Source: Gemmatimonadota bacterium
GTDB taxonomy: Bacteria > Gemmatimonadota > Gemmatimonadetes > JACCXV01
Direction of reading: 5' to 3'
Length of the DNA: 64,000 bases
NCBI GenBank assembly: GCA_036556205.1
Contig: DATBJW010000064.1
Location: forward strand, 45,298-109,297
Shown: positions 6,552-56,568 of the stretch, one piece after another
Layout: the number at the start of each line of letters is the position of its first letter
Position numbering within the stretch: the first letter of the stretch is position 1
The notes under the pieces: model-generated
What the model was told of the DNA's origin: nothing
Databases searched by the model: none
What the model saw: the letters and a program-made list of their open reading frames with translations, nothing else
Program-made: the position numbers and the translations under genes

Positions 6552-6609
6552 GTTGGCCTCCGCATGGGGACGGGCCGCTGGCAGGGGGCCGGGCGGGTCC
6601 GCGCCCCGT

Positions 6610-36288: not shown

Positions 36289-36407
36289 GGCTCCCCGAGG
36301 GACCTGCGCCGGCCCACGCGGGTCGGAACGATCCGGGCGCGCGCATGCACGCGAACGGCAACCCCGGCGAGTCGGGCGAACGAGCGGATCGCCAACGCGG
36401 AGAGACG

Positions 36408-38900: not shown

Positions 38901-38911
38901 GCCCGGCCCGC

Positions 38912-39598: not shown

Positions 39599-39834
39599 GG
39601 CGGCGTCCCCACCCTCACCCTCTCCTACCGCGCTAGGCCGTTCGGCGGATGGCGCTCTGCGCCTCTCGCTGGATGCGCCGCACCCGCGCGCGCGGCACCT
39701 TCGGACCGCGGCGACGCGTGGCCTCCCGCCGAGCGGCGGAGGCTCCCCACACCCCGTGAGCCGCGCTCTCAACGAGCGCCCGCCCCCACCCAGGCCGCCG
39801 CCCGCGGTGGCCGTGCCCACAAGGAGGTTGGCCC

Positions 39835-41046: not shown

Positions 41047-42373
41047 TCGAAGGCGCCGGCGGCGCCCCGTCGCAGGCGCCGCCGGGCTCGTCCCTCCCTC
41101 GCGCGCCATCGTCGGCGGCGGCGTCCACGCCCGCCGCCGGCGCCTCGTTTGTCAGCTCCCCCTCCGCGGCGTCCGACCCGTCGTCGAGATTGCCCGGGTC
41201 CTCCGCGCCGACTTCCGGCGCCCCTTCCCGCTCGTCCGGCTCGTCGTCATCGGCGGAAGTGCCGCGCGGGACGGGCACGCCCAGCCGGCGGGCCTCGCGC
41301 CGGACCTTGTTCCGTTCCCAGCCCAGGAGCGCCCCGGCCCGGGTCAGGTTGCCGCGCGCGATCGCCAGCACGCGCCGCAAGTGGTGGCGGAGCACCGTGT
41401 CGGCTCGCAGGTCGGGTGGTCCGTCGTCCTCGTGCATGGCCCAGACCTTCAGGTCCCCGCGCTCGATCCAGCACGAGCGGGCCCGCAGGAAACCGATGCG
41501 AAGCGTCTCGCGCAGCTCGCGCACGTTTCCCGGCCAGGCGTAGGCCAGAAACCAGGATTCCGTCGCCGCGTCCCAACCACGCACGTCCTTGCCGTAAGCC
41601 TCGGCGAACTCGCGCATGAACGTCTCGGCCAGTAGCAGGATGTCCTCGCCCCGGTCGCGCAGAGGCGGCAGCGACAGCTCGATCCCGCTCAAGCGGTAGT
41701 ACAGGTCGCGCCGGAAGCGCCCCTGCGCCACGAGCCGGCCCAGGTTGCGGTTCGTGGCGCTCACGAACTGGACGTTCACGTCCACCGCGCTCGAGGAGCC
41801 CACCGGTCGCACCTGACGGCTCTCGGACACGTAGAGCAGCTTGGCCTGGACGCGGGGGCTGATCTCGGTGATCTCGTCCAGGAACACGGTCCCGCCGCTG
41901 GCCTCGACTATGAGTCCGCGCCGCTCGCTCCGCGCGTCGGTGAATGCTCCCCGCGCGTGGCCGAACAGCTCGCTCTCGAAAAGGGTGGCCGGGATGTTGG
42001 GGCAGGGCACCTCGATGAAGGGCCGAGCCGCGCGGGGGCCTATCGCGTGGTAGAGGCGGGAGAGGAAGCTCTTCCCCGTGCCGGTGGGACCCGTGAGGAG
42101 GAGGTTGATCGAGTAGGCCGAGAGCGACCTCAGCGTGCTCTTGACCTCGAGCATGCCCGGCGAGGAGCCCACGACCTTGTCGAGCGCGTCGGGGACGCCG
42201 ATCCTGTCACCTGCCTCGCGATAGACTTCCGCGTGGGGGCTTGCCGTCGGGTGTCCCAGCACGCCTCTCCCTCCCGATCCCGGGCTCGCGGACGGACGAC
42301 TCAAGCTCCCAACCGGGTCTCCCGCCCCTGCACGACGCGTGCCGAGCAGCAGAGGAGACCGGGCGAAAGGCAT
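41033..42373 (-). CDS. Sigma-54-dependent transcriptional activator (bEBP) without a receiver/sensor domain and with an acidic C-terminal tail
   Basis: AAA+ sigma-54 interaction domain: Walker A (LLTGPTGTGKS), GAFTDA variant (GAFTDARSER), Walker B (GTVFLDEI), arginine fingers, C-terminal Fis-type HTH (LRRVLAIARGNLTRAGALLGWERNKVRR). Only ~70 low-complexity residues precede the AAA+ domain. ~85-aa Asp/Glu-rich tail. Confidence 0.85.
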   Translation of the reverse strand: MPFARSPLLLGTRRAGAGDPVGSLSRPSASPGSGGRGVLGHPTASPHAEVYREAGDRIGVPDALDKVVGSSPGMLEVKSTLRSLSAYSINLLLTGPTGTGKSFLSRLYHAIGPRAARPFIEVPCPNIPATLFESELFGHARGAFTDARSERRGLIVEASGGTVFLDEITEISPRVQAKLLYVSESRQVRPVGSSSAVDVNVQFVSATNRNLGRLVAQGRFRRDLYYRLSGIELSLPPLRDRGEDILLLAETFMREFAEAYGKDVRGWDAATESWFLAYAWPGNVRELRETLRIGFLRARSCWIERGDLKVWAMHEDDGPPDLRADTVLRHHLRRVLAIARGNLTRAGALLGWERNKVRREARRLGVPVPRGTSADDDEPDEREGAPEVGAEDPGNLDDGSDAAEGELTNEAPAAGVDAAADDGARGRDEPGGACDGAPPAPSTSTS

Positions 42374-42525
42374 GGCGAGAGTGACGAGTCACGCTCCTGA
42401 CCCGGCGTTCAAAGCCGAGCGTGAGCGGCGGCACTGGTTCGGGAGGCCGGTCCGCGCCGCGCGGGGGGACTGACGGGCAGGTGACACACGGGCGACTGGA
42501 GCGCCGCCCGGGCGGGCCAGAGGGA

Positions 42526-42840
42526 TCAGGCCCCTTGCATCTCCTCGCGGATGGCCTGCGCGAGGTCGCCGTGGCCGTGCGCCAGGGCGCTGGCGAGGCC
42601 GGAACCGAAGGCCAGCTGCGCCGCCTCCGACTCTCCCAGCAAGTGATGGGCGCGCCCTTTCATGCGGTAGGCGGCTCCCACGTCGCCCCCGGGCAGCAGG
42701 GCCACGTAGCGGTCGAGATACGCCAGGGCGCGGGCCGGCTCCCCGGCGTTCAGGAGCTCGTTGCCGGCCATGATCTGCGGCATGGGCTCGTCGGGGTTCT
42801 CGTCGGCCAGGCTCAGGACGGTCTCGAGTCGCGAGCTCAT
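42526..42840 (-). CDS. Small TPR-like helical protein
   Basis: ~105 aa. ATG at 42840 overlaps the stop of the upstream gene (ATGA). Helical repeats (ARALAYLDRYVALLPGG...AAYRMKGRAHHLLGESEAA). Confidence 0.5.
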   Translation of the reverse strand: MSSRLETVLSLADENPDEPMPQIMAGNELLNAGEPARALAYLDRYVALLPGGDVGAAYRMKGRAHHLLGESEAAQLAFGSGLASALAHGHGDLAQAIREEMQGA

Positions 42841-43367
42841 CGCACAGTCGCCTGGCCGGGCGCGAGCGTCACGTCGAAGCGCTCCGCGTCGCGATCCACC
42901 ACGACACCGCCCTCGAGGCCCACGGGGTACACACCGGCCGCGACCGTGCCGGTGCGGAAGCTCATGAGCAGGACCGCGCCCTCCCCGGCCGGGATCGTGG
43001 CCGTCCCCTCGGGATCGAAGAGCAGCAGCCGGGCGCGGCCGAGCTCCAGGTTCTGAACGACGGCTTCGAGCCGCCCGGCGGCGCGCCCTTCGGGTGCCGC
43101 GCCCTCCAGCAGGGGGATCACGTCCGGCGCGCTCACCAGATCCACCTGCAGGCTCGCGACCGGGAGGTTGTTGGCGAGCACGAGAGCGACGCTCACGCGC
43201 TCTCCAGTCCCGGTCGTGAAGCTTGGCGCCGTGATCGTCGCGGCCGGCGTCGGACCCGGCCCTCCCCCGCCGCCGTCGCCGCAAGCGGAGGCGAGGACCG
43301 CTCCGGTGAGGGCCACCGCGAGCAGCGCGGCACCGACAGCGCGCGTGGCGCGCGGCCCGGCGCTCAC
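42837..43367 (-). CDS. Cohesin-like domain lipoprotein
   Basis: GTG start at 43367. Signal plus lipobox (AALLAVALTGAVLASAC). Gly/Pro linker. ~130-aa beta-sandwich resembling cohesin modules (VSVALVLANNLPVASLQVDLVSAPDV...LLLFDPEGTATIPAGEGAVLLMSFRTGTVAAGVYPVGLEGGVVVDRD). Start overlaps the stop of the dockerin gene (GTGA). Confidence 0.5.
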   Translation of the reverse strand: MSAGPRATRAVGAALLAVALTGAVLASACGDGGGGGPGPTPAATITAPSFTTGTGERVSVALVLANNLPVASLQVDLVSAPDVIPLLEGAAPEGRAAGRLEAVVQNLELGRARLLLFDPEGTATIPAGEGAVLLMSFRTGTVAAGVYPVGLEGGVVVDRDAERFDVTLAPGQATVR

Positions 43368-45655
43368 CGCGCGGGCCTCCCGAGCGCCGGCGCACCGGCG
43401 CCGAGCGCGGCGACGGCACTCGCGGAAGCGAGCGGGCGCAGGCTTCCCCCGCGCGTGGCCGCCGTCACGCCCTCCAGCCGCGGCGCCGTGCCGGCGAAGC
43501 GGAAGAGCGGCACGCCCAGCGGCAGGTTCGCCCCCGCCAGGACGAGCACCCGGAACCGCCCGCCTCGCACGCCGGCCGTCACGACCTGGCCCGCGCTCGA
43601 GACCAGGCGCGGGGGCGTGGCGAGGCCCGCCGGGAGCCGGAAGGTGACCTCGAGCGCGCCCAGCGCGAGGTCCGGGCCAGGCGCGGCCGAGCCGTCGCTG
43701 GCCGCGCGCCGCCGGCCGCCCGGCATGGCGCCCGCGCCCGGCGCTTCCACCAGGCGAAAGGCGGCATCGTACCCGCCATGTCCATCCGGCTCGTCGTAAC
43801 GGTATTCGGGGATCTGGGCCTGCTTGCTCAAGCTGCTGCGCCCCAGCGCGCCGGGTGCGAGCAGGTTCCGGTCGAGGACCCGGTCCACGAGCCCCACCAG
43901 GTCGCCCACGTCGAGCTGCCCGTTGCCGTTCACGTCGGCGGCGCGCGTCTCCGAGTCCGAGAGGCTCCCGCGGCCGGCCAGGACCCCCAGCGCGCGCTGC
44001 AAGTCGGCAGCGTCCGAGCGCCCGTCGCCGTCCAGGTCCCCGGTCGCGAAGGGTGCGGCGGCCGCGGAAAGGGCGGCCCCCGAGATCACGTACGCCTCGC
44101 CGGCGTCCAGGAACAGGTTGCCGCGGCCGTCGCCGATCATGGCGTTCACGACCACGTCGCCGGCGCCGTCCTGGTCCACGTCGGCGCCGATCAGGGAGTA
44201 GGAGAGGATGTCGCCCGGATCGGCGGCCAGCACGACGCCGAAGGGCAGGGTCGCCAGGGGAGGATGGTCCAGCTGGATCTCCGCCGGCAGGCGCCCGGCG
44301 GGCGAGCGGACGAAGAAGAGCGCTCCGGTGCGCTCGCGCGCGTCGCTCCCCAGGAAGGTGCCGGTGGGGCTGCCGATGAAGACGTCGTCGCGCCCGTCGC
44401 CGTCGATGTCGATGAAGCGCGCCGTGTCGCCCGTGATCCCGCCCGCCGTGGGTCCGTAGATGACGCTCACTCCCGCCGGCGGCTGGCGCAGGTCGATGCG
44501 CGCGCCGTGCAGCGCCGGCCCTCCGTAGACGAGGTACGCCTCGCCCGCGCTGTTGCGCAGGTTCTCGAACCCGTCGGCCGTGAGCGCCCCGATCAGGACG
44601 TCGCCGAAGCCGTCGCCGTCGGCATCGCCCACGTTGACCTCCTCGCCGGCGAAGTCGCCGGGGTCGGCGCCGTAGACGATGGCCGCATCCGCGGGCGGGT
44701 CGGCGAGATCGACGCTCCCTCCGCGCGTCGGCGTGAAGACGACCGCCACCTCGCCCGCCCGCGCCCGCGTCTCGTCGGGGCCGTCGGCTCCCTCGACGGA
44801 GCCGTTGAAGACGACGACCGCCGCCCGGTTCAGCGCCGAGCCCACGACGAGGTCGGCCACACCGTCGGCGTCGATGCGTCCGGCGTGGACGGCGCTGCCC
44901 GCCTTGTCCTGGCTGTCGGCGCCGTGGACGGTGAAGACCCGTCCGGCCGCGTCCAGCGCGCCCACCGAGGTCGTCCCGGGCACCAGGTCGCCCCCGCCGT
45001 AGAGCACGTACGCGGCCCCGGCGCTCTCCCGGTCTCCCGCCGGCCCGTCCACGTCGGGCGCCCCGACCAGCACGTCCCCGAAGCCGTCGCCGTCCACGTC
45101 CACCACGTCCACCCAGACGCCGAAGTGGTCGCCCCCCGTCGCGCCGGCGATGCGGAGCACGTTCGGAGAAGCGAGCACGTCGATCTCGGGAGCCAGCGCG
45201 GGCGAGCCGAAGACCACGTAGACCGTTCCCGTCCCCACCTGCCCGGACACGACGACGTTGGGCGCGCCCAGGACGAGGTCCGCGAATCCGTCGCCGTTCA
45301 CGTCCCCGCCGGCGCACTCGACACCCAGCGACTGGATGCCCGAGATCCGGGTCACGACGCCCGGCTGGGCGAGGGCCTCCTGCTGGCCGGCGTTGACGGA
45401 GGGCGCGAAGAAGAGGAAGGCCTCGGAGGCGTTGAAGGCGCAGAGGAGCACGTCGTCGCGCCGGTCGCCGTTCACGTCTCCGCCGCCGAGCGGGAGCCCG
45501 AAGTTGCCGCCGCTGATCGTGCGCAGGAGGAGGTCTCGCTGCCCGGCGGGGTGAAGGGCCGTGTCCCATCTGAGAACGCTCTGCGCCTCCAGCGGGCGCG
45601 CGGCGGCGGCCGGCCCGAGCAGGGCGAGGAGAGCGATCCTTCGAAGGGGGAGCAC
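43364..45655 (-). CDS. Secreted FG-GAP (integrin-alpha-like) repeat beta-propeller protein carrying a type-I dockerin module
   Basis: GTG start at 45655 gives a signal peptide (LPLRRIALLALLGPAAAARPLEA). Multiple FG-GAP/VCBS repeats (GDVNGDGFADLVLGAP, DVDGDGFGDVLVGAP, DADGDGFGDVLIGA, DIDGDGRDDVFIGSP, DVDQDGAGDVVV). Dockerin duplicated segment (DLDGDGRSDAADLQRALGVLAGR / DVNGNGQLDVGDLVGLVDRVL). The C-terminal ~130 aa are beta-rich with no assignment. The 45913 ORF-track start is rejected. Confidence 0.75.
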   Translation of the reverse strand: MLPLRRIALLALLGPAAAARPLEAQSVLRWDTALHPAGQRDLLLRTISGGNFGLPLGGGDVNGDRRDDVLLCAFNASEAFLFFAPSVNAGQQEALAQPGVVTRISGIQSLGVECAGGDVNGDGFADLVLGAPNVVVSGQVGTGTVYVVFGSPALAPEIDVLASPNVLRIAGATGGDHFGVWVDVVDVDGDGFGDVLVGAPDVDGPAGDRESAGAAYVLYGGGDLVPGTTSVGALDAAGRVFTVHGADSQDKAGSAVHAGRIDADGVADLVVGSALNRAAVVVFNGSVEGADGPDETRARAGEVAVVFTPTRGGSVDLADPPADAAIVYGADPGDFAGEEVNVGDADGDGFGDVLIGALTADGFENLRNSAGEAYLVYGGPALHGARIDLRQPPAGVSVIYGPTAGGITGDTARFIDIDGDGRDDVFIGSPTGTFLGSDARERTGALFFVRSPAGRLPAEIQLDHPPLATLPFGVVLAADPGDILSYSLIGADVDQDGAGDVVVNAMIGDGRGNLFLDAGEAYVISGAALSAAAAPFATGDLDGDGRSDAADLQRALGVLAGRGSLSDSETRAADVNGNGQLDVGDLVGLVDRVLDRNLLAPGALGRSSLSKQAQIPEYRYDEPDGHGGYDAAFRLVEAPGAGAMPGGRRRAASDGSAAPGPDLALGALEVTFRLPAGLATPPRLVSSAGQVVTAGVRGGRFRVLVLAGANLPLGVPLFRFAGTAPRLEGVTAATRGGSLRPLASASAVAALGAGAPALGRPAR

Positions 45656-45707
45656 GAGCCTCCGGGAGGGGAAGAGGGCCAGGCAATATCGCGCGGAAGG
45701 GAGGCCT

Positions 45708-46382
45708 CTACAAGACGACCGCGGCCTGCCGGCGCTCGCGCAGCAGCGCCAGGAGATGGCGCCGGAAGACCGGGTCCGCGAGCACGCCGTGCAGGTAGGT
45801 GCCCATCGCCGCGTAGTCGCGCGTCGCGAGGCCGAGGGGGCAGGCCGCGCTCCCGCGGGCCGCTTCGTGGAAGAGCGGCGCGGCGTCGCCGCTGCGGAGG
45901 ACGGATTGGCCACCGTGGGTCTCGAACCCCGACACTTCGGCCCCGGCGGGCAGGAACGCCGCCGCCCCGGTCGCGCGCACCGGCTCGTCGATCTTCTCGC
46001 GCGTGAACGTGGTCACCAGGTCGAAGATCGCGAGCCCGCTCGCCCGCTCGGCGCCGCCCTCGAGCCGCTCCGGGTCGAGGAGCTCGCTGCCCATCATCTG
46101 GAAGCCGCCGCAGATCCCGAACAGGAGCGCCCCCCCGGCCGCGGCACGGCGCACGGCCGCCTCCATTCCCGTCGCGCGCAGGTGCGCCAGGTCGGGCAGC
46201 GTCGCCTCGGAGCCGGGGAGCACGACCATGTCGGCAAGGCCGAGGTCCTCGGGGCGGTCCACGAAGGCCAGGTCCACGCCCGGCTCGGCCGCGAGGGCCT
46301 CGTACTCCTCGAGGACCGCGCTTTGAGGCAGGCGGACGATGCGGACGACGAGCCGGACCTCTGGATTCATGCTACCCTTCAT
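45708..46382 (-). CDS. Stand-alone glutamine amidotransferase domain protein (CobB/CobQ-type GATase1)
   Basis: LFGICGGFQMMG (nucleophile-cysteine motif of the CobQ/CobB GATase family) and a C-terminal histidine (YLHGVL). ~225 aa with no synthetase domain attached. Start could be M at 46382 or 46370. Confidence 0.7.
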   Translation of the reverse strand: MKGSMNPEVRLVVRIVRLPQSAVLEEYEALAAEPGVDLAFVDRPEDLGLADMVVLPGSEATLPDLAHLRATGMEAAVRRAAAGGALLFGICGGFQMMGSELLDPERLEGGAERASGLAIFDLVTTFTREKIDEPVRATGAAAFLPAGAEVSGFETHGGQSVLRSGDAAPLFHEAARGSAACPLGLATRDYAAMGTYLHGVLADPVFRRHLLALLRERRQAAVVL

Positions 46383-46555
46383 GAGCCTGAAGGTCGTCTC
46401 GTGACCGAGCTCACGCCTTGCGCGGGAGTCGGCGGCGGCGAGGCGTGAAGCTCGCGGCGACGGAGCGATCGGGCGTTCGCCCGCTCTCACTTCCGCGTCC
46501 CCGCCGGCGTCTTACATTCTACGACACCGCCCGGCCTCAAACCAAGGAGACCCGT

Positions 46556-47281
46556 ATGCCTCGAGCCCGCGCCCTTCGCGTCGCAACGCTTCTCTGCGCG
46601 GCCGCCGCGCTCCCCCTGGCCGTCTCGGCCTGCAGACGCGAGCACGAGAACGGCGAGGAGGCCAAGCCGCCGCCCTCGCGATCCAGCGAGCTCGCGCGCG
46701 ACGCGGGCGAGAAGCCGCAGCTGGTCATGGACAAGCTCGAGATCCGGGCGGGAAGCAACGTGGTCGACGTGATCGCCGGCGGGGGCTACTACACCTACCT
46801 GCTCTCCGAGCGCGTGGGCCCGGCCGGGAAGGTCTACGCGACCGGCGCCGAAGGTGTGACCCAACGCATGAACGAGGGGGACCTCAAGGGAAAATCGAAC
46901 ATCACGGTCGTGAAGGACGTGGCTGACATCCCGGCCGGCTCGCTGGACGCGGTCCTCATCAATCGCGCCTACCACCTGATCAACAAGCCCGGCGAGACTT
47001 TCTTCCCCGCGCTCCAGAAAGCACTCAAGCCCGGCGGGCGGATCGGGATCGTCGAGGTCCGGCTGGGGCAGCCCACGGGCCACGACATGAAGACGCACCG
47101 CATGGGCGAGCAGACCGTGCGGGAGGAGGTCGAGGCAGGCGGGTTCACGCTCGTCGAGTCGTCGGCGCTGCTGGCCAACCCGGCCGACCCGCGCACCGAT
47201 TTCATGGAGGGCAAGCGCCACCTGGCCGACCGGATGTTCCTGATCTTCGAGAAGCCCCCCGCGGCCGCCGCGGCGCGCTGA
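46556..47281 (+). CDS. Class I SAM-dependent methyltransferase-like lipoprotein
   Basis: ATG at 46556 with AAGGAGA upstream. Lipoprotein signal (LLCAAAALPLAVSAC). Methyltransferase motif I (VVDVIAGGGYYT) and post I/II (LDAVLINRAYHLI...LKPGGRIGI). Confidence 0.7.
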   Translation: MPRARALRVATLLCAAAALPLAVSACRREHENGEEAKPPPSRSSELARDAGEKPQLVMDKLEIRAGSNVVDVIAGGGYYTYLLSERVGPAGKVYATGAEGVTQRMNEGDLKGKSNITVVKDVADIPAGSLDAVLINRAYHLINKPGETFFPALQKALKPGGRIGIVEVRLGQPTGHDMKTHRMGEQTVREEVEAGGFTLVESSALLANPADPRTDFMEGKRHLADRMFLIFEKPPAAAAAR

Positions 47282-47323
47282 CGCCGCGCGGGCCGGGGAG
47301 CCCGCCGCTTCCCACCTATCCCT

Positions 47324-49357
47324 CTACGCCGCGCGCTTCGCCGGCGGCGTTTCCTTCTTGGGGCTCGTTCCCTTTCCCGGCGCCGCTCCCTTCCCCGGGG
47401 CGCCGGCCTTCCCCGAGTCCGCCGCCGCCGGGTTCGTCTCGGGTTGAATCTCCCGCACGCCGGCCTGGACGTTGGCGCTGTACCAGAAGGCCCGCGGCGT
47501 CACCAGGAGCTTGCGCGGCTTGACGGCGATGTGGACCTCGCGGCCTTCGACCTCCACCGACTCGCTCACGCTGGCCGGCAAGTCGAGCGTGGGGACGATC
47601 TTGGTGGGCAGCTTGATGTTGAAGCCTTTGGTCAAGACCTTGGTCAACAACGCCACGATCTTGTCGGGGCTCATCACCTTCATTCCGATCCCGCATTTCC
47701 CCAGGTCGTTCAGCTCCGACATCGTCGTGCGCACCTTGGCCCACGTCGCCTCCGACGGAGAGACCGAGACGCGGATCTTCTGCACGGGGAACTGGGGCGA
47801 GGCCACGATCCTGTCCCCCACGGCAGCCAGCACGAGGTCGCCCGTCACGTTGTAGCTTCGGGGGACCGCGTTGCCGTCCACGTCGAGCGTCTTCTGGAAG
47901 TCGCCGCAGGCGGCGCCCGAGACGCCCTGCGCGTCCCAAGTGAAGGCCACCGTGGCCGTGCCGTAGCCCGAGACAGCTCGCACGGGCACCGAGACGCGGA
48001 GCCGGTTCTCGCCCACGACGCTGACCAGCGGCGGGTCGGCGGCAAGGATCGCCTGAATGCGCTTGACGGTGACGTGGACCTTCCAGCTCCCGGCCGTGAT
48101 CATCTTGCCGAAAGGTCCTTTGACCTTGACCGTCTCGCCCTCGTCCACCTCTTCCCCGAGGTTGATGTCCAGCTCGACCCGCTTCAAGAAACGCCTCGTC
48201 GCCTCCTGAACCAGGTGGTTGATCAGCTCGGGCTTGATCCCCACGGCCACCTCGCCGGGGTCGGCCGCGATCGCCCACAGGAGCGTGTCCGCGGCCGTCG
48301 CGACCTTGATCGAGTCGGTGAGGGCTTCGAACTGGCTCCGCAGCTCCTTCATGCGCGGGGTCATGCTGTCGGGCGGAGCGCCCGCGGATGACATGCGGCT
48401 CTCGACCGACTCCATCGCCGCGCCGACCTCTCCAGCCGCGGAGGTGTCGGGCTCCTGGCCCGGGTCCGGCTTCTGGAGCGGCAGAGGGACGCGATCCTCG
48501 AGCACAGCGCCGTCGGAACCCAGCGAGCGGCTGGCCCATCGCACGGCCCCGGCCGCCCGGGCGGCCGGCTTCGTCTCCTCGGCCTTTCCCCCGGTGCTGT
48601 CGGCTTGACCGGGCTCTTGCACGTCGACTCCGATCGTGACCCAGACCTTCCCCGCCACGACGAGCACTTCCTCGACTGCGACGCGCAGAGGGACGACCGC
48701 GGGCGCGATCTTCACCTCACCGGCGGGCCCCACCCCGGGGATCTTCACCTGCTGCTCGAGCGCGACCGGGATCTCGAGGTTCGAGGCCAGGGAGTTGAGC
48801 TTCTCCAGGGGCAGGCTGACCAGGGCGTCGACCAGGCCCTGAACCGGGGCCGACACGCCCATGACGGCCACCTTCGGCACCTCGAGGCCGATCACGTCCA
48901 CGCGGGCGCGCAGCACGCCCGTCTTGGGGTCGATGCCCGTCACCTGCAGCACGCCGTAGACCTTCACGTCCGCGGCCACGGTCTCGTCTTCGCCTCCCAC
49001 CAGGCTGCCGCGGCCGTTCAGCTCGACGAGCGCGAAATTGGCCCGGAAGTCCACCTTGGCCGAGTTCACCTGGATGCGATACTTGTCGTCGATGACGCGC
49101 TCGTAGGGCGTCGCCTCGTCCAGCAGCTGGCCGACCAGCCGCTGGTCGACCGTGACCAGCACCTGGTCGAAATCGAGGATCTTGCCTTTCCGTGTCGTCT
49201 CGAGCAGGGACTGGGCGCCCTTGACCCGCCGCTCGAGGATCGTCTCCTGCAACTCCACGCCGGACGTCCCGCCTCCCTTTCCACGACACCCCGCCAGGTC
49301 GAAGGCGGCTCCGGCCAGAAGGAGGGCCTGGAGGAGAACGATCGGGACGCTGCGCAT
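47324..49357 (-). CDS. Large lipoprotein of unknown function, paralog A (internally duplicated)
   Basis: 677 aa. Lipobox (LLLAGAAFDLAGC). Shares extended similarity with the next gene (e.g. TPYERVIDDKYRIQVNSAKVDFRANFALVELNGRGSLV vs TPYERVVDDTYRVRVDSAAVEFQAGFALVRLDGRASLV). The C-terminal half repeats the N-terminal theme. Confidence 0.65.
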   Translation of the reverse strand: MRSVPIVLLQALLLAGAAFDLAGCRGKGGGTSGVELQETILERRVKGAQSLLETTRKGKILDFDQVLVTVDQRLVGQLLDEATPYERVIDDKYRIQVNSAKVDFRANFALVELNGRGSLVGGEDETVAADVKVYGVLQVTGIDPKTGVLRARVDVIGLEVPKVAVMGVSAPVQGLVDALVSLPLEKLNSLASNLEIPVALEQQVKIPGVGPAGEVKIAPAVVPLRVAVEEVLVVAGKVWVTIGVDVQEPGQADSTGGKAEETKPAARAAGAVRWASRSLGSDGAVLEDRVPLPLQKPDPGQEPDTSAAGEVGAAMESVESRMSSAGAPPDSMTPRMKELRSQFEALTDSIKVATAADTLLWAIAADPGEVAVGIKPELINHLVQEATRRFLKRVELDINLGEEVDEGETVKVKGPFGKMITAGSWKVHVTVKRIQAILAADPPLVSVVGENRLRVSVPVRAVSGYGTATVAFTWDAQGVSGAACGDFQKTLDVDGNAVPRSYNVTGDLVLAAVGDRIVASPQFPVQKIRVSVSPSEATWAKVRTTMSELNDLGKCGIGMKVMSPDKIVALLTKVLTKGFNIKLPTKIVPTLDLPASVSESVEVEGREVHIAVKPRKLLVTPRAFWYSANVQAGVREIQPETNPAAADSGKAGAPGKGAAPGKGTSPKKETPPAKRAA

Positions 49358-49433
49358 GCTCGGGATCCTGCTCGGAAGGGTTGGCCGGCCGGTCCGGCTC
49401 GACGGCCGGAGCGCGGACGCGACGTTGTGGCGA

Positions 49434-51314
49434 TCAGCGGCCGGGCGCCCCCAGGGAGTCGGCGCCCACCGGCGCTCGGATCGGCGCCGGCCCGCCGGGC
49501 TCGGCCTCGACCGCGGCCGTGTACCAGAGCACGGACGGCGCTGTTCGCAGCTGCTGGGGTTGCACGTCGAGCAGGATCGTCCGGTCCTCGAACTCGACGG
49601 ACTCGCTCACGCGGGCCGGGATCTCGACCGTCTTCAAGATACTGCGCGGGAGCTTGACCTTGAAACCCTTCTGCTGCCCGATCTCCTCGAGCTTCTCGGT
49701 CAGGTCGTCGACGTCCACCACCCCGCACTTGCCGCTCTCGTTCTGGGATTCGATGATCGCCCGGACCCTGGCCCACGACTCGGGCGCGAGGTCCACCTTG
49801 ATGCGAAACTTCTCGCGGGGGAAGTCCGGCCGCGCCAGGATCTCCTCGCCCTGGGCCGTCAGCACGTAGTCCCCCTTCACCTGATAGGTTCCCGGCAGGA
49901 CCACGCCCGAGATGTCGAGTGTGGTCGCGAAATCGTCGCATACGATCTCCACCAGCGACTTCGCGTCCCAGGTGAAGTCGAGGGTGCCGCTCCCCTGACC
50001 CCGCACGATGGACACCGGCAGCGTCAGGTGGATCCGGTCCGGCTCCCTGAAGGCGAGGCGCGGAGTCCCGGCCCTGAGCACTCCGCGCAGGCGCTCGATG
50101 TGGAGCACCACGCTCCAGTCACCGGCCTTGATGTCGCCGACCGGCGTCTCGACCTCGAGAGGCTTCGTTTCGTCCACCGGCTTCTCGGGGGTGAGGTCGA
50201 GCTCGACGTGATCCAGGTAGACGGCCGCCACCTGCCGGGCCAGCAGCTCGAGCAGCGCCGGCCGCACGAACAGCGCCACGTCGCCGGTGTCGGCCACCGC
50301 CTTCAGGAACAGCGTGTCGCCCGCGGTGAGCGCGGTGATGCTGTCCTCCAGGGCCGCGTAGGTCGCCCGCAGCTCGGCCTCGCGCCGACGTCGCTCCAGC
50401 GAGTCCGCGCGCTGTCCTCCGAGCGGCTGCCCCATGCCGAGCGTCGCGAAGGCGGCCGAGCCCGGCGTCGGGCTGCTCGCCAGGCCCTCCAGCGTGACTC
50501 CTTGGCCCCTTCTCACACGCGGCGCGCCCGCGGACCCGAGGCCGCCGTATTGGACCGTGTCGGGTGGCACGGCCACCGCGATCGTGATCCAGAGCTTCCG
50601 GGCGATCACCTTCACGCCCTGGACGGAGACCCGCAGGGGGATCCTGGCGGCCGGGATGCGGACCCGGTCGTCCTCGTCGCCCGCGTTCACCCGGGGGAGC
50701 TTCAACGCCTCGTCGAAGCGGACCGGGATCTCGAGTTCGGAGTTGAACACGTCGAACTTCGAGATCTCCTCGCGGGTGAGGTCCTCGATCAGTCGGCGAA
50801 CCGGCGGCTCCATGCCGAGCAGGCCGACCCGCCGGGCCGTGAAGGCGATGATGTTCAAGCGCGCGCGCAGGACTCCGCTGGCCGGGTCCACCCCCCGCAC
50901 GTCCAGGCCGCTGTAGAGGCTGACGTCGGCGAACGCTCCGTCGGGGGCGGCCCGCACCAGGCTCGCGCGACCGTCCAATCGCACGAGCGCGAAGCCGGCC
51001 TGGAACTCGACGGCCGCGGAGTCCACTCGAACCCGATACGTGTCGTCGACGACGCGCTCGTAGGGCGTGACCGACGAGATCAGGTCCCCGATCAGCCGCT
51101 CGTCCACGACCGCCACCATCTGCTCGAAGGGGACCAGCGGACCTTGCCGGGCGGCGGCGAGAAGGCGTCGGGCGCCCTCGATCCGGCGCTCGAGCACGGC
51201 TTGCCTGGGAGGGACGCGCGGCTGGGAGGGGCGGCGGCACCCGCTCAGCGGCACGAGCAGCAGCGCTATCAGGGCCCCGCCGACGAGCGGGACGCGGGAT
51301 CCAAGCCCTCTCAT
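49434..51314 (-). CDS. Large lipoprotein of unknown function, paralog B
   Basis: 626 aa. Lipobox (LVPLSGC). Homologous along its whole length to 47324..49357. Confidence 0.65.
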   Translation of the reverse strand: MRGLGSRVPLVGGALIALLLVPLSGCRRPSQPRVPPRQAVLERRIEGARRLLAAARQGPLVPFEQMVAVVDERLIGDLISSVTPYERVVDDTYRVRVDSAAVEFQAGFALVRLDGRASLVRAAPDGAFADVSLYSGLDVRGVDPASGVLRARLNIIAFTARRVGLLGMEPPVRRLIEDLTREEISKFDVFNSELEIPVRFDEALKLPRVNAGDEDDRVRIPAARIPLRVSVQGVKVIARKLWITIAVAVPPDTVQYGGLGSAGAPRVRRGQGVTLEGLASSPTPGSAAFATLGMGQPLGGQRADSLERRRREAELRATYAALEDSITALTAGDTLFLKAVADTGDVALFVRPALLELLARQVAAVYLDHVELDLTPEKPVDETKPLEVETPVGDIKAGDWSVVLHIERLRGVLRAGTPRLAFREPDRIHLTLPVSIVRGQGSGTLDFTWDAKSLVEIVCDDFATTLDISGVVLPGTYQVKGDYVLTAQGEEILARPDFPREKFRIKVDLAPESWARVRAIIESQNESGKCGVVDVDDLTEKLEEIGQQKGFKVKLPRSILKTVEIPARVSESVEFEDRTILLDVQPQQLRTAPSVLWYTAAVEAEPGGPAPIRAPVGADSLGAPGR

Positions 51315-51321
51315 GGAAGGC

Positions 51322-51918
51322 TCAGTGCGCGGGCGTGGTGGAAAAGCCCCGGATCAAGCGCCGCGCGGCGGGATCGACCCGGGCCCAGCCGGCAAAGGGA
51401 ATCGTGGTCCAGAAGGCGAAGCGATCCTCGAGGCCCAGGAGGCGGCAGGCGTAGAGCGCGAGCACGGTCCCATGCGACACGATCGCCACGTCTCCGGCGG
51501 GGTGCTCGCTCAGGATGCGGGCGACTGCCGCGGCCATCCGCCAATCGGCCTCTGCACACGACTCCCAGCTCTCCGGCCCACGAGTCCCGGTCAGATAGTC
51601 GCGCACCGCCTCCTCCCAGCCGGGCAGGCGCCCCGCCGGGCGCCGCACCTCTCGAAGGGCTGGGACCGCGCGGAGCGAGAGCCCGTGGCGACGCGCGGCG
51701 GGCTCCGCCGTCTGTACGGCCTTGGGCTCATCGCTCGAGTGCAGGGTACGAATTTGCCGCCAGAAGGGCTCTCTTGCGAGGGCCAATGCCTGCTCGCGGC
51801 CGCCGGGCGAAAGGCGCCAACGATCGGCGGGCACGTCGTAATCCGGAAGGGACTGCGCGTGGCGGATGAGGACCAGTTCGCGGGGCCGCGAATGCGGGCC
51901 GGGCTCGCCAGGGAGCAT
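51322..51918 (-). CDS. Histidine phosphatase family protein (phosphoglycerate-mutase-like)
   Basis: RHG-type motif (LVLIRHAQS) at the N-terminus and a C-terminal VSHG (AIVSHGTVL). ~198 aa from the ATG at 51918. Confidence 0.7.
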   Translation of the reverse strand: MLPGEPGPHSRPRELVLIRHAQSLPDYDVPADRWRLSPGGREQALALAREPFWRQIRTLHSSDEPKAVQTAEPAARRHGLSLRAVPALREVRRPAGRLPGWEEAVRDYLTGTRGPESWESCAEADWRMAAAVARILSEHPAGDVAIVSHGTVLALYACRLLGLEDRFAFWTTIPFAGWARVDPAARRLIRGFSTTPAH

Positions 51919-51940
51919 GGACCAGCCGCAGGCGCGGGGT

Positions 51941-53615
51941 CTAGCGTCCCCGCCGTCTGCCTCCGCGGCGTCCTCGGCGAGAGCCGCCGTGCGTGGTTCC
52001 GGGGCCGCGGCCCGCGGCCTCGGACCGTACGCGCGTCGTTTCGGGGCGCGCAGGCTGACCGCGTCGGCCCGGCGCGCCGTCACCACGCTGGAGGTGGCTG
52101 TGGTGGCGACTGTAGAAGAAGTAGATCGCGAGCCCGATCACGAGCCAGACCACGAGGCGCAGCCAGGTGTCGCCTGGCAGCCCCGCCATCATCGCGAAGC
52201 AGACCACGATCCCCAGGATCGGCACCAGCGGCACGAGCGGGGTCCGGAAGGGGCGCGCGCGGTCCGGCTCCTTGACCCGCAGGTACCAGACGCCGGCGCA
52301 GACGATCACGAAGGCGAGCAGCGTCCCGATCGAGACCAGCTCGCCCAGGATCGAGATCGGCAGCGCTCCGGCGAAGGCGGCGCAGACAATCCCGGTGAGG
52401 ATCGTGGTCACGTACGGCGTGCGGAAGCGGGGATGGACCTTGCTGAAGACGGGAGGCAGCAGCCCGTCGCGGGACATCGAGTAGAAGACCCGCGGCTGCC
52501 CCATGAGCATCACGAGCATCACCGAAGAGAGGCCCGCGATGGCGCCGATCTTGACCAGGTCGCGCAGGATGTCGATGCCCGTCTTCTCGATGCCGACCGC
52601 GATCGGCTCGGGGACGTTGAGCAGCGCGTACGGGACCATGGCCGTCAGGATGCCCGAGACCAGGATGTAGAGGATGGTGCAGATGAGCAGCGACCCCAGG
52701 ATTCCGATCGGCATGTCGCGCTGGGGGTTGCGGGCTTCCTGGGCGGTGGTGGAGACGGCGTCGAATCCGATGTAGGCGAAGAAGATGACCCCCGCCGCGC
52801 GCAGCACGCCGGTCCAGCCGAAATGGCCGAAGGCGCCCTCGTTGGGCGGGATGAAGGGCGACCAGTTGTCGGCCGCCTCGGCGGGGTGGCCGAAGAGCCA
52901 CGAGGCGCCGGCCAGGATGAACATCAGGATGACGGCGAGCTTGATGACCACGATCGCGTTGTTGAAGCGCGCCGACTCCTTGATGCCGATCACGAGCAGG
53001 ATCGTGATGCACGTGATCGCGAAGACCGCCACCAGGTTGAAGACGCCCGTGGCGTGGGGCAGCGCAGCCATGTCCACGCCTTGCGCGGCGAGCTGCTCGC
53101 CGAGCTGGCGCGTCACCAGCACCCAGCTCTCGGACCCGGGCGCCTGGACGAGCTGGGCGCCGTAGGCGTTCGACCACTGGGGCGGGATGTGGATCCCGAG
53201 GTCGCGCAGGAACGAGACGACGTAGCCCGACCAGCCGACCGAGACGGTGGCGGCGCCGAACATGTACTCCAGGATCAGGTCCCAGCCGATGATCCAGGCC
53301 ACCAGCTCGCCGAGGGTGGCGTAACCGTACGTGTAGGCCGAGCCCGCCGCCGGGATCATGGAGGCGAACTCCGAGTAGCAGAGCCCGGCGAAGGCGCAGC
53401 CCACGCCCGCCAGCACGAACGACAGCACGATGGCCGGCCCCGCGTACTGGGCGGCCGCGTGGCCGGTGAGCACGAAGATTCCGGTGCCGATGATGGCGCC
53501 GATGCCGAGCGCCACCAGGTTCACGGGGCCGAGCGCGCGCTTGAGGCTGTGCTCGCCCTCCGTGAAGGCGTCGGCGCGCAGCGTGTCGATCGACTTCCGC
53601 GCGAACAGGTTCACC
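51941..53615 (-). CDS. APC-superfamily amino acid permease, copy 1
   Basis: GTG start (VNLFARKSIDTLRADAFTEGEHSLKRALGPVNLVALGIGAIIGTGIFVLTG) with AGGAGA upstream. 12-14 TM helices. ~80% aa identity to the 61268..62863 copy. Confidence 0.85.
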
Positions 53616-53663
53616 GGGATCTCTCCTGTTGGTGAGGGTGAGGGCCGGGTACGGCGGTCGGGG

Positions 53664-55316
53664 TCACGCGCCGTGATCCTCGAGGACCGGCCGGCCGGTG
53701 GGCGTGCGCGCACCGCGCGCGGCCCGCAGCGCCATCCAGAAGAGCGATCCGGCCAGCAGCAGCAGCACGGCGGCCGAGATCGCGATCACCTGCGCCGCCC
53801 CCCCGCTCTGGCCGGTCAGACCTCCGCGCACGTGCAGCACGAGCGAGACGAGCGTGACGGCGGCCAGGAAGACGAGCGGCAGGACGGCGATCGCCGGGCT
53901 GCGGCCCGTGCGCGCGAGCCAGACCGCGATGCCCGTCAGCGTGAGCGCCGCCAGCAGCTGGTTGCTGGTCCCGAACAGCGACCAGACCGTGGCGTAGGCG
54001 TCGTCGGGGAGCGCCATCAGGAACACCGCGGCGGGTACGACGGTGGCCGCGGTGGCGGCGTAGCGGCCGAAGCTTCCGGTCCAGCCGCAGAGCTCCTGCA
54101 GGATGTAGCGCGCGAGCCGGGTGGTTACGTCGAGCGTGTCGTAGATGAAGGTCGTGAGCGCGAGGAAGCCGAATCCGGTCGCCAGGCCGACGGGGATGCC
54201 GATAACCGAGAGGAAGCGGGCGATCCCGCCGGCGAAGATCTCGTCGGGTTTGCTCGCTTGCGTGCCCATCATGACGGTCGCCAGTGCGATCAGGGCGACC
54301 ACGCCTTCCGCCAGCATCGCGCCGTAGCCCACCAGCCGGGCGTCGCTCTCGCTGCGCAGCTGCTTGGACGTCGTGCCGCTGCAGACCAGGCCGTGGAACC
54401 CCGAGCAGGCGCCGCAGGCGATCGTGACGAAGAGGATCGGGAACAGGCTTCCGTGTCCCGGGCTCGTGAAGCCCAGGAAGGCGGGCGCCCGCACGGTGAG
54501 GCCGCCGAACAGGAGCCCGATCGCCCCCGCGGCCAGGAAGCCGTAGAGCAGGAAGCCGCCCAGGAACCCGCGCGGCTGGAGCAAGAGCCACATGGGAAGC
54601 ACCGCGGCCACGAAGCAATAGGCCAGGATCAACAGGTCCCAGGCCTTGCGCGGGTTCTCCGCCACCCACTCGGGCAGGACGATGGGAGCCTTCGGGCCGA
54701 GCCAGATCGCAGCCAGGAGCAGCGGCCCGAAGATCCCCGCCACGAGTGGCAGCGGCAGCTGGCGCCAGCGCAGCAGCAGCCCCAGCGCGAAGGCCAGGCC
54801 CAGATAGAGGAGCGAGGACGTCGCCACCCCACCGCCGAAGCCGGCATGCGTGAACTCGGAGGCCGTGATGTCGGTGAAGGCGACGATCACGTAGAGCAGG
54901 GCGATCCAGATGAACGACAGGAACAGCAGGAAGGCCGGGCGGCCGACGTGCTCGCGCATGATCTCGGCCACCGAGCGCGCCCCATGGCGCACGGAGCCCA
55001 CCAGGCTGGCGAAATCATGGGCGGCGCCCAGGAACACGCAGCCGAGCGCGATCCAGAGGATCGCCGGCACCCAGCCGAACCACAGCGCGGCCAGGATCGG
55101 GCCCACGATCGGCCCCGCGGCGCTGATGGCGCTGAAGTGCTGCGCGAAGAGGAAGCCGGGCCGGGCCGGGACGTAGTCCATCCCGTCCTCGAGCACCCAG
55201 GCGGGGGTGGGGCGGGCGGGGTCGAGCGCGAACCGGCGGGCCAGGAAACGCCCGTACACCAGGTAGCCCGCCCCGAAGAGCGCGAGCACGGGGAGGATCG
55301 CCAGCAGCAGCGGCAT
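53664..55316 (-). CDS. cstA: Carbon starvation protein CstA family peptide/pyruvate transporter
   Basis: 550 aa. The N-terminus (MPLLLAILPVLALFGAGYLVYGRFLARR) and conserved CstA blocks (GPIVGPILAALWFGWVPAILWI...; CGACSGFHGLVCSGTTSKQL) identify the CstA family. Confidence 0.9.
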   Translation of the reverse strand: MPLLLAILPVLALFGAGYLVYGRFLARRFALDPARPTPAWVLEDGMDYVPARPGFLFAQHFSAISAAGPIVGPILAALWFGWVPAILWIALGCVFLGAAHDFASLVGSVRHGARSVAEIMREHVGRPAFLLFLSFIWIALLYVIVAFTDITASEFTHAGFGGGVATSSLLYLGLAFALGLLLRWRQLPLPLVAGIFGPLLLAAIWLGPKAPIVLPEWVAENPRKAWDLLILAYCFVAAVLPMWLLLQPRGFLGGFLLYGFLAAGAIGLLFGGLTVRAPAFLGFTSPGHGSLFPILFVTIACGACSGFHGLVCSGTTSKQLRSESDARLVGYGAMLAEGVVALIALATVMMGTQASKPDEIFAGGIARFLSVIGIPVGLATGFGFLALTTFIYDTLDVTTRLARYILQELCGWTGSFGRYAATAATVVPAAVFLMALPDDAYATVWSLFGTSNQLLAALTLTGIAVWLARTGRSPAIAVLPLVFLAAVTLVSLVLHVRGGLTGQSGGAAQVIAISAAVLLLLAGSLFWMALRAARGARTPTGRPVLEDHGA

Positions 55317-55392
55317 GCGGGATACCGAAGAGGAGGCGCAGGATCGGCGCCCAACCTAGCTTTCACCGCCACGCCGAACAAGCTTCGGTGCC

Positions 55393-56568
55393 ATGCACGG
55401 AAGGATCGTCGCGAGCCGCGAACGCCTGAGGACGTGGGGGCTGGTCCTCGGGTTCTGGACGCTGCTCGCGCTCTTCTTCAGCAGCGAGATCTACTCCTAT
55501 CAGCTCGCAGCCGGCGAGCCGCTGCCGTGGCTTCGCGCGCTGCGCTGGTCCCTGGTCTCCTGGTATTCGTGGGCGGCGCTCGCCCCGCTCGTGTTCTGGC
55601 TCGTGCGCCGCTTCTCGCTCGAGCGGCTGGGGATCGCGAGGGGCGTGGTCCTGCACGTGGTTCTCTCGGCCGTCTTCTCGCTCCTCCACCTGGTCGTCAC
55701 GAACGCGGGAAACGCGGCGCTCCTGCGGCTGGCGGGAGAGCCGTTCGACTTCTGGGAGGAGTTCCGCTACCTGCTGCCGCTCACCTTCCACTTCGGGATG
55801 GTGACCTACTGGGTGATGGCGGGCGCCTGCGTGGCGCTCGACGTCTACCGCCGCTACCGGGAGCGCGAGCACCGCGCCTCCGCCCTCGAGTCCCAGCTGG
55901 CGCGCGCCCGGCTCCAGGCCCTGCGCGGGCAGCTGCACCCGCACTTCCTGTTCAACACGCTCAACACGATCTCGGCCCTGGTCGCGCGGGATCCGCGCGC
56001 GGCGGACCGCATGATCGAGCGCCTGGGCGATCTCCTGCGCCGGACCCTGGACGACGGCGGCTCGGCCGAGGTGCCCCTGGAGGAGGAATTGCGGTTTCTG
56101 GAGGGCTACCTCGAGATCGAGCGCACGCGCTTTCGCGATCGGTTGACAGTCCTGACGCACATCGACCCGCGGGCGCGGGACGCGCGGGTCCCCAGCCTGA
56201 TCCTGCAGCCGCTGGTGGAGAACGCCATCCGCCACGGAATCGCTCCGCGCGCCGGCCCCGGCCGCATCGAGATCCGGGCCGAGCGCCACGAGGCCGGGCT
56301 GCGGCTGCTCGTCCAGGACGACGGTCCCGGCGTACCCGGCGGCGCCCCCGCGGGAGCGCCGGAAGGCGTGGGCCTGGCCAACACCCGCGCGCGCCTGCGC
56401 CAGCTCTACGGCGATCGGCAGCGTCTGAGCGTCGGGAACGCCGCAGGCGGCGGCTTCGAAGCCGTGATCGAGATCCCGTTCCAGCACGCCGCCGACCCTG
56501 CCTCGGCAGGCGGCGAGCCTCGCGCCGCGGCCGGAGGGCCCGGCCCGGCGGGCGGAGAGCCCGGATGA
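55393..56568 (+). CDS. LytS/YehU-family sensor histidine kinase (membrane 5TM-like sensor plus His_kinase/HATPase_c)
   Basis: N-terminal polytopic region. His_kinase domain (LRGQLHPHFLFNTLNTISALV). HATPase N-box (LILQPLVENAIRHGI) and G-boxes (DDGPGVP...GVGLANTRARL). Confidence 0.85.
   Translation: MHGRIVASRERLRTWGLVLGFWTLLALFFSSEIYSYQLAAGEPLPWLRALRWSLVSWYSWAALAPLVFWLVRRFSLERLGIARGVVLHVVLSAVFSLLHLVVTNAGNAALLRLAGEPFDFWEEFRYLLPLTFHFGMVTYWVMAGACVALDVYRRYREREHRASALESQLARARLQALRGQLHPHFLFNTLNTISALVARDPRAADRMIERLGDLLRRTLDDGGSAEVPLEEELRFLEGYLEIERTRFRDRLTVLTHIDPRARDARVPSLILQPLVENAIRHGIAPRAGPGRIEIRAERHEAGLRLLVQDDGPGVPGGAPAGAPEGVGLANTRARLRQLYGDRQRLSVGNAAGGGFEAVIEIPFQHAADPASAGGEPRAAAGGPGPAGGEPG

Follow-up and report, generated by a model that had tools for sequence, protein, structure and literature searches.

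Two adjacent genes on the minus strand of a 64,000-nucleotide stretch of DNA from a Gemmatimonadota bacterium (GenBank assembly GCA_036556205.1, contig DATBJW010000064.1, positions 45,298 to 109,297; called the window here, at its full length) were followed up with profile searches, AlphaFold2 (AF2) and Foldseek. The genes, called A and B, are full-length tandem paralogues. They seem to belong to an uncurated bacterial family of BPI-like double-TULIP proteins, and their modelled structures suggest that the products are membrane-tethered proteins of the periplasm which bind or transfer lipids.

A and B are real genes. The two proteins align from end to end with 38% identity and 55% positives (E 3e-129), and A lies 3' of B with a gap of 76 nt between them. 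This agrees with a preliminary description, made from the sequence alone, which had proposed two adjacent minus-strand paralogues and had quoted a stretch that falls within the alignment. At a G+C content of about 72% the window is rich in long overlapping open reading frames (ORFs) on both strands, and A and B could on that ground be suspected of being chance open frames, but this explanation can be regarded as already refuted: a gene-like codon-position signature (GC3 0.90-0.91 with GC2 of about 0.5) is confined to the A and B frames, 665 homologous clusters are spread across phyla, and the AF2 model of B is confident.

AF2 was used to predict the structures of both proteins from different alignments. 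The model of B, built from 48 sequences, has a mean predicted local distance difference test score (pLDDT) of 83.3 and a predicted TM-score (pTM) of 0.78, with 354 residues at pLDDT >=90 and disorder mainly at residues 257-300. The model of A, built from 19 sequences, has a mean pLDDT of 67.5 and a pTM of 0.63; it is ordered over residues 32-250 and 330-640, and disordered in the linker (251-327) and at both ends. Each model was compared with the PDB using Foldseek, and for each independently the top matches were BPI, LBP, OrfX1-OrfX3 and CETP: human BPI 1bp1 (A E 2.9e-9, B E 3.5e-8), BPI 1ewf (A E 2.1e-7, B E 5.0e-7), LBP 4m4d (A E 2e-7, B E 1e-7), OrfX1-OrfX3 8bgm and 8fbd (A E 1e-6 to 1e-5, B E 6e-7 to 2.5e-6) and CETP 2obd (A E 4e-4, B E 1e-4). 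These alignments span 634-681 columns with a Foldseek probability of 0.99-1.0. The OrfX2 alignments are shorter: B matches 9arj over 581 columns (E 5.5e-4, probability 0.85), and the match of A to 8fbf, over 520 columns (E 1.4e-2, probability 0.35), is not significant.

The significant PDB matches of both models are thus double-TULIP proteins only, and no other fold class is significant. Next in rank, with weak E-values, come single-TULIP proteins: Der f 7/Der p 7, JHBP, the beta-carotene-binding protein, SPLUNC1/BPIFA1 and Mmm1. A library of predicted viral structures, used as a negative control, gave nothing better than E 0.01 and a probability of at most 0.3. LptA/LptDE, LolA-like, AsmA-like, gasdermin-like, porin and TonB-barrel folds were also considered and rejected, with Foldseek probabilities of at most 0.25.

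The AF2 elements and the Foldseek alignments indicate, in each module, a helix wrapped by a long curved antiparallel sheet together with a second helix, and in both proteins two such tandem modules are collinear with the known double TULIPs over the full length. The long strands have a strong period-2 hydrophobic moment that is conserved across the family alignment, as would suit strands with one face buried or turned to a lumen. By analogy to known members of the fold, the modules would share a central sheet and enclose a hydrophobic lumen.

Several observations weigh against the double-TULIP assignment. The superpositions are poor: TM-scores are 0.18-0.27 (TMq) and 0.23-0.35 (TMt), all below 0.5, and the root-mean-square deviations (rmsd) are 17-23 A (18-20 A for BPI, LBP and CETP). 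The fold call draws its support from the statistics of the 3Di alignments and the order of the elements and not from a good rigid-body superposition. Amphipathic strands of period 2 are expected of any sheet with one buried face. Among the 48 full-length members, the Pfam families LBP_BPI_CETP, DUF4403, DUF1439, DUF2140 and DUF2993 are absent at E<=1, DUF2785 is likewise unmatched, and neither A, B nor any of the 48 has an above-gathering match to PF01273 or PF02886. Sequence searches of the PDB, with single sequences (phmmer) and with the profile (hmmsearch), returned chance matches only. Finally, the family has no conserved functional neighbourhood beyond synteny within a phylum, so the neighbours give no hint of a ligand or pathway.

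The low TM-scores are likely due to a different curvature or domain angle and to the greater length of A and B, which have 150-220 residues more than BPI: the proteins are elongated, and a slight change in either the curve or the angle is enough to spoil a rigid fit. Such scores also seem normal in the TULIP superfamily, since the crystal structure of TipA is reported to differ from BPI by an rmsd of 5.7-5.8 A even domain by domain (bioRxiv 10.1101/2025.09.09.675085).

The same scores, together with the lack of a sequence-profile link to any lipid-binding family, could mean that the resemblance to TULIP is architectural only, and that A and B are structural, tethering or protein-binding envelope lipoproteins which hold no lipid in a lumen. 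The cavity is a presumed one, and a scaffold would likewise be compatible with the basic tail of A and with linkers that are long and disordered. We consider this fairly unlikely, because every significant PDB match is a TULIP with a probability of 0.85-1.0 (0.99-1.0 except for OrfX2 9arj), no alternative fold class appears, the viral control was empty, and the TULIPs characterised so far all bind hydrophobic ligands (PMC6791001; bioRxiv 10.1101/2025.09.09.675085).

Both proteins are predicted to be exported and lipid-anchored, judging from their N-termini. Each starts with a positively charged n-region and a hydrophobic core, followed by a canonical lipobox that fits the pattern [LVI][ASTVI][GAS]C: LLQALLLAGAAFD-LAG-C24 in A (...AAFDLAG-C24) and ALIALLLVP-LSG-C26 in B (...LLVPLSG-C26). 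The lipoprotein status given in the preliminary description is borne out by these features, and the +2 residue is Arg in both proteins (LAG-C24-R, LSG-C26-R). About ten residues separate the lipobox Cys from the first predicted helix. A lipobox is present in 14 of 54 full-length members of the family; another 29 start with a hydrophobic segment that lacks one, and the remaining 11 seem to be truncated at the N-terminus or are unclear. After a lipobox Cys, the +2 residue is in most cases Arg (18) or Gly (13), with Asp in only 4. By the Lol rule of E. coli, whose validity in the phyla concerned is an assumption, a non-Asp residue at +2 would place A and B in the outer membrane. Relatives anchored by a predicted transmembrane segment must sit in the inner membrane.

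As a sequence family, these proteins are uncurated. Neither A nor B was placed in a family by hmmscan against Pfam-A and NCBIfam at E<=1, and a Pfam scan of the 48 full-length members gave scattered chance matches only (18 weak families, none consistent). A word-indexed protein search found 4 relatives of A and 17 of B, all unnamed or called 'hypothetical protein' and none with a precomputed Pfam domain, and repeating it with the 48-member alignment found no further relatives. An exhaustive hmmsearch of 1.84 billion representatives with a 19-sequence profile returned 665 clusters at E<=1e-3, of which 294 reach E<=1e-30, and the family comprises at least 665 clusters at 50% identity. No description of the family in Gemmatimonadota or Acidobacteria turned up in a search of the literature. 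The preliminary description of an 'unknown family' without a known domain was correct at the level of sequence (searches of Pfam, NCBIfam and PDB sequences gave no match for A and B or for 46 relatives); the profile searches led to no well-characterised family with a known role, though the fold does point to a known superfamily.

The preliminary description also held that each protein appears to consist of two homologous halves, and this stands in part. In the AF2 models both halves run through the same elements in turn: a long helix, a short strand, a helix, a strand, several very long antiparallel strands, two helices and the terminal strands. Additional strands are inserted in the C half relative to the N half. 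Sequence support is slight. Pairwise BLAST of the N half against the C half gave nothing better than E 0.008 over 86 residues, which is not significant. A first hhalign comparison of the halves gave E 0.007 and a probability of 5% over roughly the last 90 residues only. When the sets were enlarged to 26 N and 71 C sequences, hhalign found a collinear alignment of 214 columns with a local E of 0.0022 and a probability of 13%, rising to 69% in global mode. The modelled halves thus appear to share a fold and, like BPI-N and BPI-C, they probably descend from one ancient ancestor. The duplication is supported at the level of fold only and could not be claimed from the sequence by eye. Nor are the halves recognisable sequence repeats. 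Other lineages encode them as two distinct modules in separate adjacent genes.

These separate genes appear among the hmmsearch matches, which fall into full-length proteins of about 560-680 aa, many C-half-only proteins of about 320-360 aa (profile positions of about 285-595) and many N-half-only proteins of about 240-285 aa (about 15-250). One short protein of each type was looked up, and both times the neighbouring gene, in the same orientation, encodes the partner half, with the N gene first and the C gene second. In one pair (L013) the N gene at 171-947 and the C gene at 944-1948 overlap by 4 nt, which suggests translational coupling; in the other (L014) the genes, at 789-1589 and 1640-2584, are 50 nt apart. 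Each of the stand-alone N or C proteins retrieved starts with a signal sequence or lipobox of its own, so the two would be exported separately and must assemble in the periplasm. The fused and adjacent-gene forms together indicate a protein built from two separable modules.

The N module of B is modelled as a long helix (residues 36-57), four long antiparallel strands (93-164), helices at 171-190 and a terminal beta-meander (193-248), with pLDDT mostly above 90 (62-82 over residues 161-190). Its C module has helices at 301-330 and 511-549 and strands at 380-451. The model of A repeats this pattern. The linker of B has pLDDT <50 at residues 257-300 and gap-rich alignment columns. A differs from B in having a longer, acidic and Pro-rich linker and a basic Lys/Pro/Ala tail (…GKAGAPGKGAAPGKGTSPKKETPPAKRAA; pLDDT <50 at residues 640-677). 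The tail has no counterpart in B or in most relatives, and P0002, a close orthologue, is alone in keeping it; peptidoglycan or an acidic surface might be its binding partner. The two paralogues may have diverged in ligand or partner. A pair of Cys residues in the C module is invariant in 48 of 48 full-length members and 71 of 71 C-module sequences, as expected of a structural disulfide in an oxidising extracytoplasmic compartment such as the periplasm.

The best full-length structural matches, BPI, LBP and CETP (1bp1, 4m4d, 2obd), are likewise extracytoplasmic and consist of two tandem modules, each a helix in a curved sheet, joined by a linker; the N and C halves of BPI are also faintly similar in sequence. 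A and B differ from them in their length, in their lack of sequence-profile similarity, in the TM-scores given above (0.23-0.35) and in being predicted to be anchored to the membrane by lipid, or elsewhere in the family by a transmembrane segment. The BPI linker has about 20 residues and the disordered linker of A and B is much longer, at 45-75. The disulfide of BPI, between Cys135 and Cys175, is in the N module, whereas the conserved Cys pair of the A/B family is in the C module.

A double TULIP in the bacterial envelope is, as such, already a known kind of protein. DUF4403 (PF14356) was predicted by HHsearch to be a bacterial pseudo-dimeric BPI-like TULIP (Levine 2019, PMC6791001). Like A and B, it occurs in diderm bacteria with a signal sequence, is in the majority anchored as a lipoprotein with a non-Asp +2 residue, and combines two TULIP modules in a single chain that has additional strands for a dimer interface. 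The A/B family differs in having no hmmscan match to it, in its length (about 600 aa against about 460 aa), in its shorter tether (about 10 residues against 20-25) and in that split pairs of N and C genes are common. The structures of P47/OrfX and YceB have been solved, and DUF2140 and DUF2993 are TULIPs predicted by HHsearch (PMC6791001). YceB/DUF1439, DUF2140 and DUF2993/LmeA resemble the stand-alone N or C modules in size and envelope anchoring, but the modules of the A/B family match none of these Pfam families and always come as an N and C pair, fused or in adjacent genes.

A solved structure is available for TipA (Bd2538) of Bdellovibrio bacteriovorus, a BPI-like double TULIP whose lumen contains lipids; the protein is reported as mis-annotated DUF2785, and its authors note many double TULIPs with extra domains in AFDB (bioRxiv 10.1101/2025.09.09.675085). 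It is similar in size to A and B (about 570 residues traced). Unlike them, it is secreted into prey and forms a homodimer by means of a hairpin, and its operon encodes a beta-sandwich adapter, TipB; A and B are predicted to be anchored and have no sequence match to it. No TipB-like small beta-sandwich gene lies beside A and B, and the other loci also have unrelated neighbours. TipA was not among the PDB matches from Foldseek and may be missing from the copy of the library.

OrfX1-OrfX3, OrfX2 and P47 (8bgm, 8fbd, 9arj) are also bacterial TULIP proteins with significant Foldseek matches, and OrfX1 and OrfX3, being separately encoded chains in one complex, loosely recall the split N and C gene pairs. 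These matches could suggest that A and B are accessory proteins of a toxin complex, as in the botulinum gene cluster of Firmicutes. This is very unlikely indeed: no bont/ntnh-type or other toxin genes were found in the neighbourhood in the window or in the related loci, the hosts are Gemmatimonadota and Acidobacteriota, and A and B are predicted to be membrane-anchored, unlike OrfX/P47, with which they share no sequence similarity.

Taken as anchored double TULIPs, A and B would be exported and then lipid-anchored through Cys24 (A) or Cys26 (B), and the tether of about ten residues would keep them close to the membrane on its periplasmic side. Each protein would consist of two tubular lipid-binding modules joined by its disordered linker, each module being a long helix wrapped by long, curved, amphipathic beta-strands. 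By analogy to BPI, LBP, CETP, OrfX/P47 and TipA, the tubes would most likely enclose a hydrophobic lumen, which could bind lipids or other hydrophobic molecules of the envelope, picked up from or delivered to a membrane. The N and C modules would be packed back-to-back, as in BPI, and by analogy to the TipA protomer (142 A) one end of a boomerang of about 10-14 nm would lie near the anchoring membrane. The products of split N-then-C genes would presumably assemble into the same pseudo-dimer. A and B could then be an inter-membrane shuttle, a partner of other transporters or a buffer of a specific lipid; cooperation with other transporters has been suggested by Levine for the outer-membrane-anchored DUF4403 and YceB (PMC6791001). 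That a lipid is the ligand, the direction or purpose of its transfer and the choice of anchoring membrane are points we infer. The preliminary description had likened the pair to outer-membrane assembly or lipid-transfer factors. Lipid transfer fits the double-TULIP fold, and nothing points to outer-membrane assembly.

Features of genes A and B and of their surroundings in the window (aa, amino acids).
Feature	Position	Strand	Remarks
Gene B	49434-51314	(-)	626 aa; upstream paralogue; from ORF list; GC3 0.91
B signal peptide and lipobox	51237-51314	(-)	MRGLGSRVPLVGGALIALLLVPLSG-C26, +2 Arg; read from sequence, codon positions verified
B N-terminal TULIP module (predicted)	50565-51212	(-)	residues 35-250; AF2 secondary structure
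B interdomain linker	50415-50564	(-)	residues 251-300; predicted disordered, poorly conserved
B C-terminal TULIP module (predicted)	49479-50414	(-)	residues 301-612; AF2 model
B invariant Cys459	49938-49940	(-)	C module
B invariant Cys530	49725-49727	(-)	C module
Gene A	47324-49357	(-)	677 aa; downstream paralogue; from ORF list; GC3 0.90
A signal peptide and lipobox	49286-49357	(-)	MRSVPIVLLQALLLAGAAFDLAG-C24, +2 Arg; read from sequence, codon positions verified
A N-terminal TULIP module (predicted)	48608-49264	(-)	residues 32-250; AF2 secondary structure and alignment to B N module
A interdomain linker	48377-48607	(-)	residues 251-327; predicted disordered (pLDDT <50); Pro/Ala/Gly/Ser/Glu-rich
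A C-terminal TULIP module (predicted)	47438-48376	(-)	residues 328-640; AF2 model
A invariant Cys484	47906-47908	(-)	C module; coordinates verified
A invariant Cys555	47693-47695	(-)	C module; coordinates verified
A C-terminal Lys/Pro/Ala/Gly-rich tail	47327-47437	(-)	residues 641-677; predicted disordered; absent from B
His_Phos_1 phosphatase	51322-52086	(-)	phosphoglycerate-mutase-like; ends 7 nt before B ATG
Methyltransferase-fold lipoprotein	46418-47281	(+)	converges on 3' end of A
GATase_3 (CobB/CobQ-type glutamine amidotransferase)	45708-46490	(-)	stand-alone, 260 aa; also near the locus in L002 and L005
Secretin with C-terminal SPOR domain	36285-38900	(+)	surface/secretion cluster 36285-45913
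Subtilase S8 with I9 propeptide	39835-41046	(+)	surface/secretion cluster
Sigma-54 activator	41033-42373	(-)	surface/secretion cluster
FG-GAP repeat protein	43364-45913	(-)	849 aa; weak dockerin-like match; surface/secretion cluster
Amino-acid permease	51941-53713	(-)	upstream of B, same strand
CstA	53664-55316	(-)	upstream of B, same strand
LytS-type histidine kinase	55393-56568	(+)	divergent

The tandem pair seems to be a local event. A pattern scan of one genome per GTDB species gave 11 loci, all from metagenome-assembled genomes: in Gemmatimonadota (L002, L004, L005, L008), in Acidobacteriota, mostly Vicinamibacteria (L003, L006, L009-L012), and in Candidatus Eisenbacteria (L007). This spread, with the G+C content of 72% and the best identities, points to a Gemmatimonadota genome as the likeliest source of the window. 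By tblastn, one fused copy and no tandem pair is present at each of these 11 named-genome loci and at L001, a locus from a metagenome. The pair therefore appears to be a lineage-specific duplication and not a conserved architecture. A-like and B-like proteins occur together on just one further contig, of 5 kb, which encodes P0002 (87% identical to A) and P0007 (85% identical to B). In a neighbour-joining tree (distance-based, midpoint-rooted and indicative only) an A clade (A, P0002, P0003, P0004, L002) is sister to a B clade (B, P0006-P0009), and the two are nested among other Gemmatimonadota and Acidobacteriota sequences.

The surroundings of the single gene in other Gemmatimonadota tell the same story. 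His_Phos_1 is immediately upstream in L002 and L004, the convergent methyltransferase-fold lipoprotein is downstream in L002 and L005, and a CobQ-type GATase is near in L002 and L005. This synteny fits an in-situ tandem duplication in the window's lineage, and the A/B pair would accordingly have arisen within Gemmatimonadota. The preliminary description had correctly named the methyltransferase lipoprotein and the histidine phosphatase as the flanks of the pair; the neighbourhood is syntenic within the phylum, while outside Gemmatimonadota the neighbours are unrelated and nothing is common across phyla. A divergent upstream de-N-acetylase of the PIG-L/LmbE family recurs at three Acidobacteriota-type loci (L010 4803-5888 (-), L011 2430-3428 (-), L014 1-714 (-)). 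It is shared by Vicinamibacteria loci, is the only recurring neighbour outside Gemmatimonadota and is probably lineage synteny.

The His_Phos_1 gene is probably co-transcribed with B. In L002 (341-907 (+)) and L004 (8-718 (+)) the phosphatase precedes the TULIP gene as in the window, an order that was not found outside Gemmatimonadota and may be plain synteny. The methyltransferase-fold gene (L002 2944-3552 (-), L004 5471-6355 (-), L005 2127-2951 (-)) comes straight after the TULIP gene in L002, in L005 and in the window; in L004 the distance is about 2.7 kb. These neighbours of the class-I S-adenosylmethionine (SAM)-methyltransferase fold have a signal peptide and lipobox in the window (...PLAVSA-C), L004 (...IVPA-C) and L005 (...LTLA-C). 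Export of this fold to the periplasm is odd because SAM is cytoplasmic, and the ligand may be another one. The GATase_3 protein resembles in size and domain, as we assume, GatD of the MurT/GatD lipid II amidotransferase. Upstream of B and beyond the histidine kinase, a long (+) ORF ending at 57350 has what looks like a response-regulator/LytTR-type sequence, read by eye from its translation, and the permease, CstA and kinase set (51941-57350) presumably resembles a BtsSR/YpdAB-like nutrient-sensing arrangement.

Scans of the DNA itself added little. A promoter and terminator scan of 46300-55600 found no promoter-like sites and no convincing terminator between A and B, and tandem repeat, Rfam and tRNA scans found nothing relevant to the pair; a tRNA-Gln (anticodon TTG) at 6608-6680 (-) is the sole Rfam/ARAGORN match in the window. 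Shadow frames cover A and B on both strands between 47316 and 51869, for example 49152-51869 (+) of 905 aa, 47316-48539 (-) of 407 aa and 50119-51240 (-) of 373 aa. They fail the GC3/GC2 test, and such frames in high-GC DNA could mislead automated gene callers.

No link between the surface/secretion cluster and the TULIP genes was found, but its type II secretin, subtilase and FG-GAP/dockerin protein lie 1.4-11 kb from them and raise the idea that A and B are effectors like BPI or TipA, destabilising the membranes of other bacteria in competition or predation. BPI permeabilises Gram-negative membranes, and TipA, which is secreted into prey, is able to bind bilayers and perturb them (bioRxiv 10.1101/2025.09.09.675085). 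This idea is quite improbable. The predicted lipid anchor on its short tether, and in many relatives the uncleaved-looking hydrophobic N-terminal anchor, speak for retention on the membrane of the producer; no immunity, adapter (TipB-like beta-sandwich) or secretion gene is adjacent; and in unrelated lineages the gene is single-copy with housekeeping-type neighbours. A role as tethered lipid-binding or lipid-transfer proteins of the cell's own envelope is the reading we prefer.

A bolder form of lipid transfer can also be imagined, in which A and B, and elsewhere the split N and C modules, are hetero-oligomers joined end to end as TULIP tubes, in the manner of the TipA dimer (260 A) or of Mmm1-Mdm12, and serve as a dedicated conduit or shuttle for lipids from the inner to the outer membrane. 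Such a system is improbable. If true, it would be characteristic of Gemmatimonadota, Acidobacteriota and Eisenbacteria, and would be a lipid-trafficking route not described for model proteobacteria, beside or instead of Mla/AsmA-type pathways.

What is new here, with anchored double TULIPs as the preferred reading, is a sequence family of considerable size, uncurated and found mainly in Gemmatimonadota, Acidobacteriota and Eisenbacteria, with fused and split two-gene forms, an invariant Cys pair in the C module and a lineage-specific tandem duplication. The family is unseen by Pfam and NCBIfam and is hence annotated as 'hypothetical', and recognising it as a probable double TULIP gives a testable hypothesis of lipid binding or transfer. 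That both fused genes and adjacent N and C genes occur suggests how two separate TULIP chains can make up a pseudo-dimer of the BPI type, a point of relevance to the proposal that eukaryotic TULIPs come from bacteria. The biochemistry of the envelope is almost unstudied in Gemmatimonadota and Acidobacteriota, two phyla abundant in soil, and the movement of lipids and other hydrophobic molecules through the periplasm of diderms outside the Proteobacteria is a largely unexplored subject.

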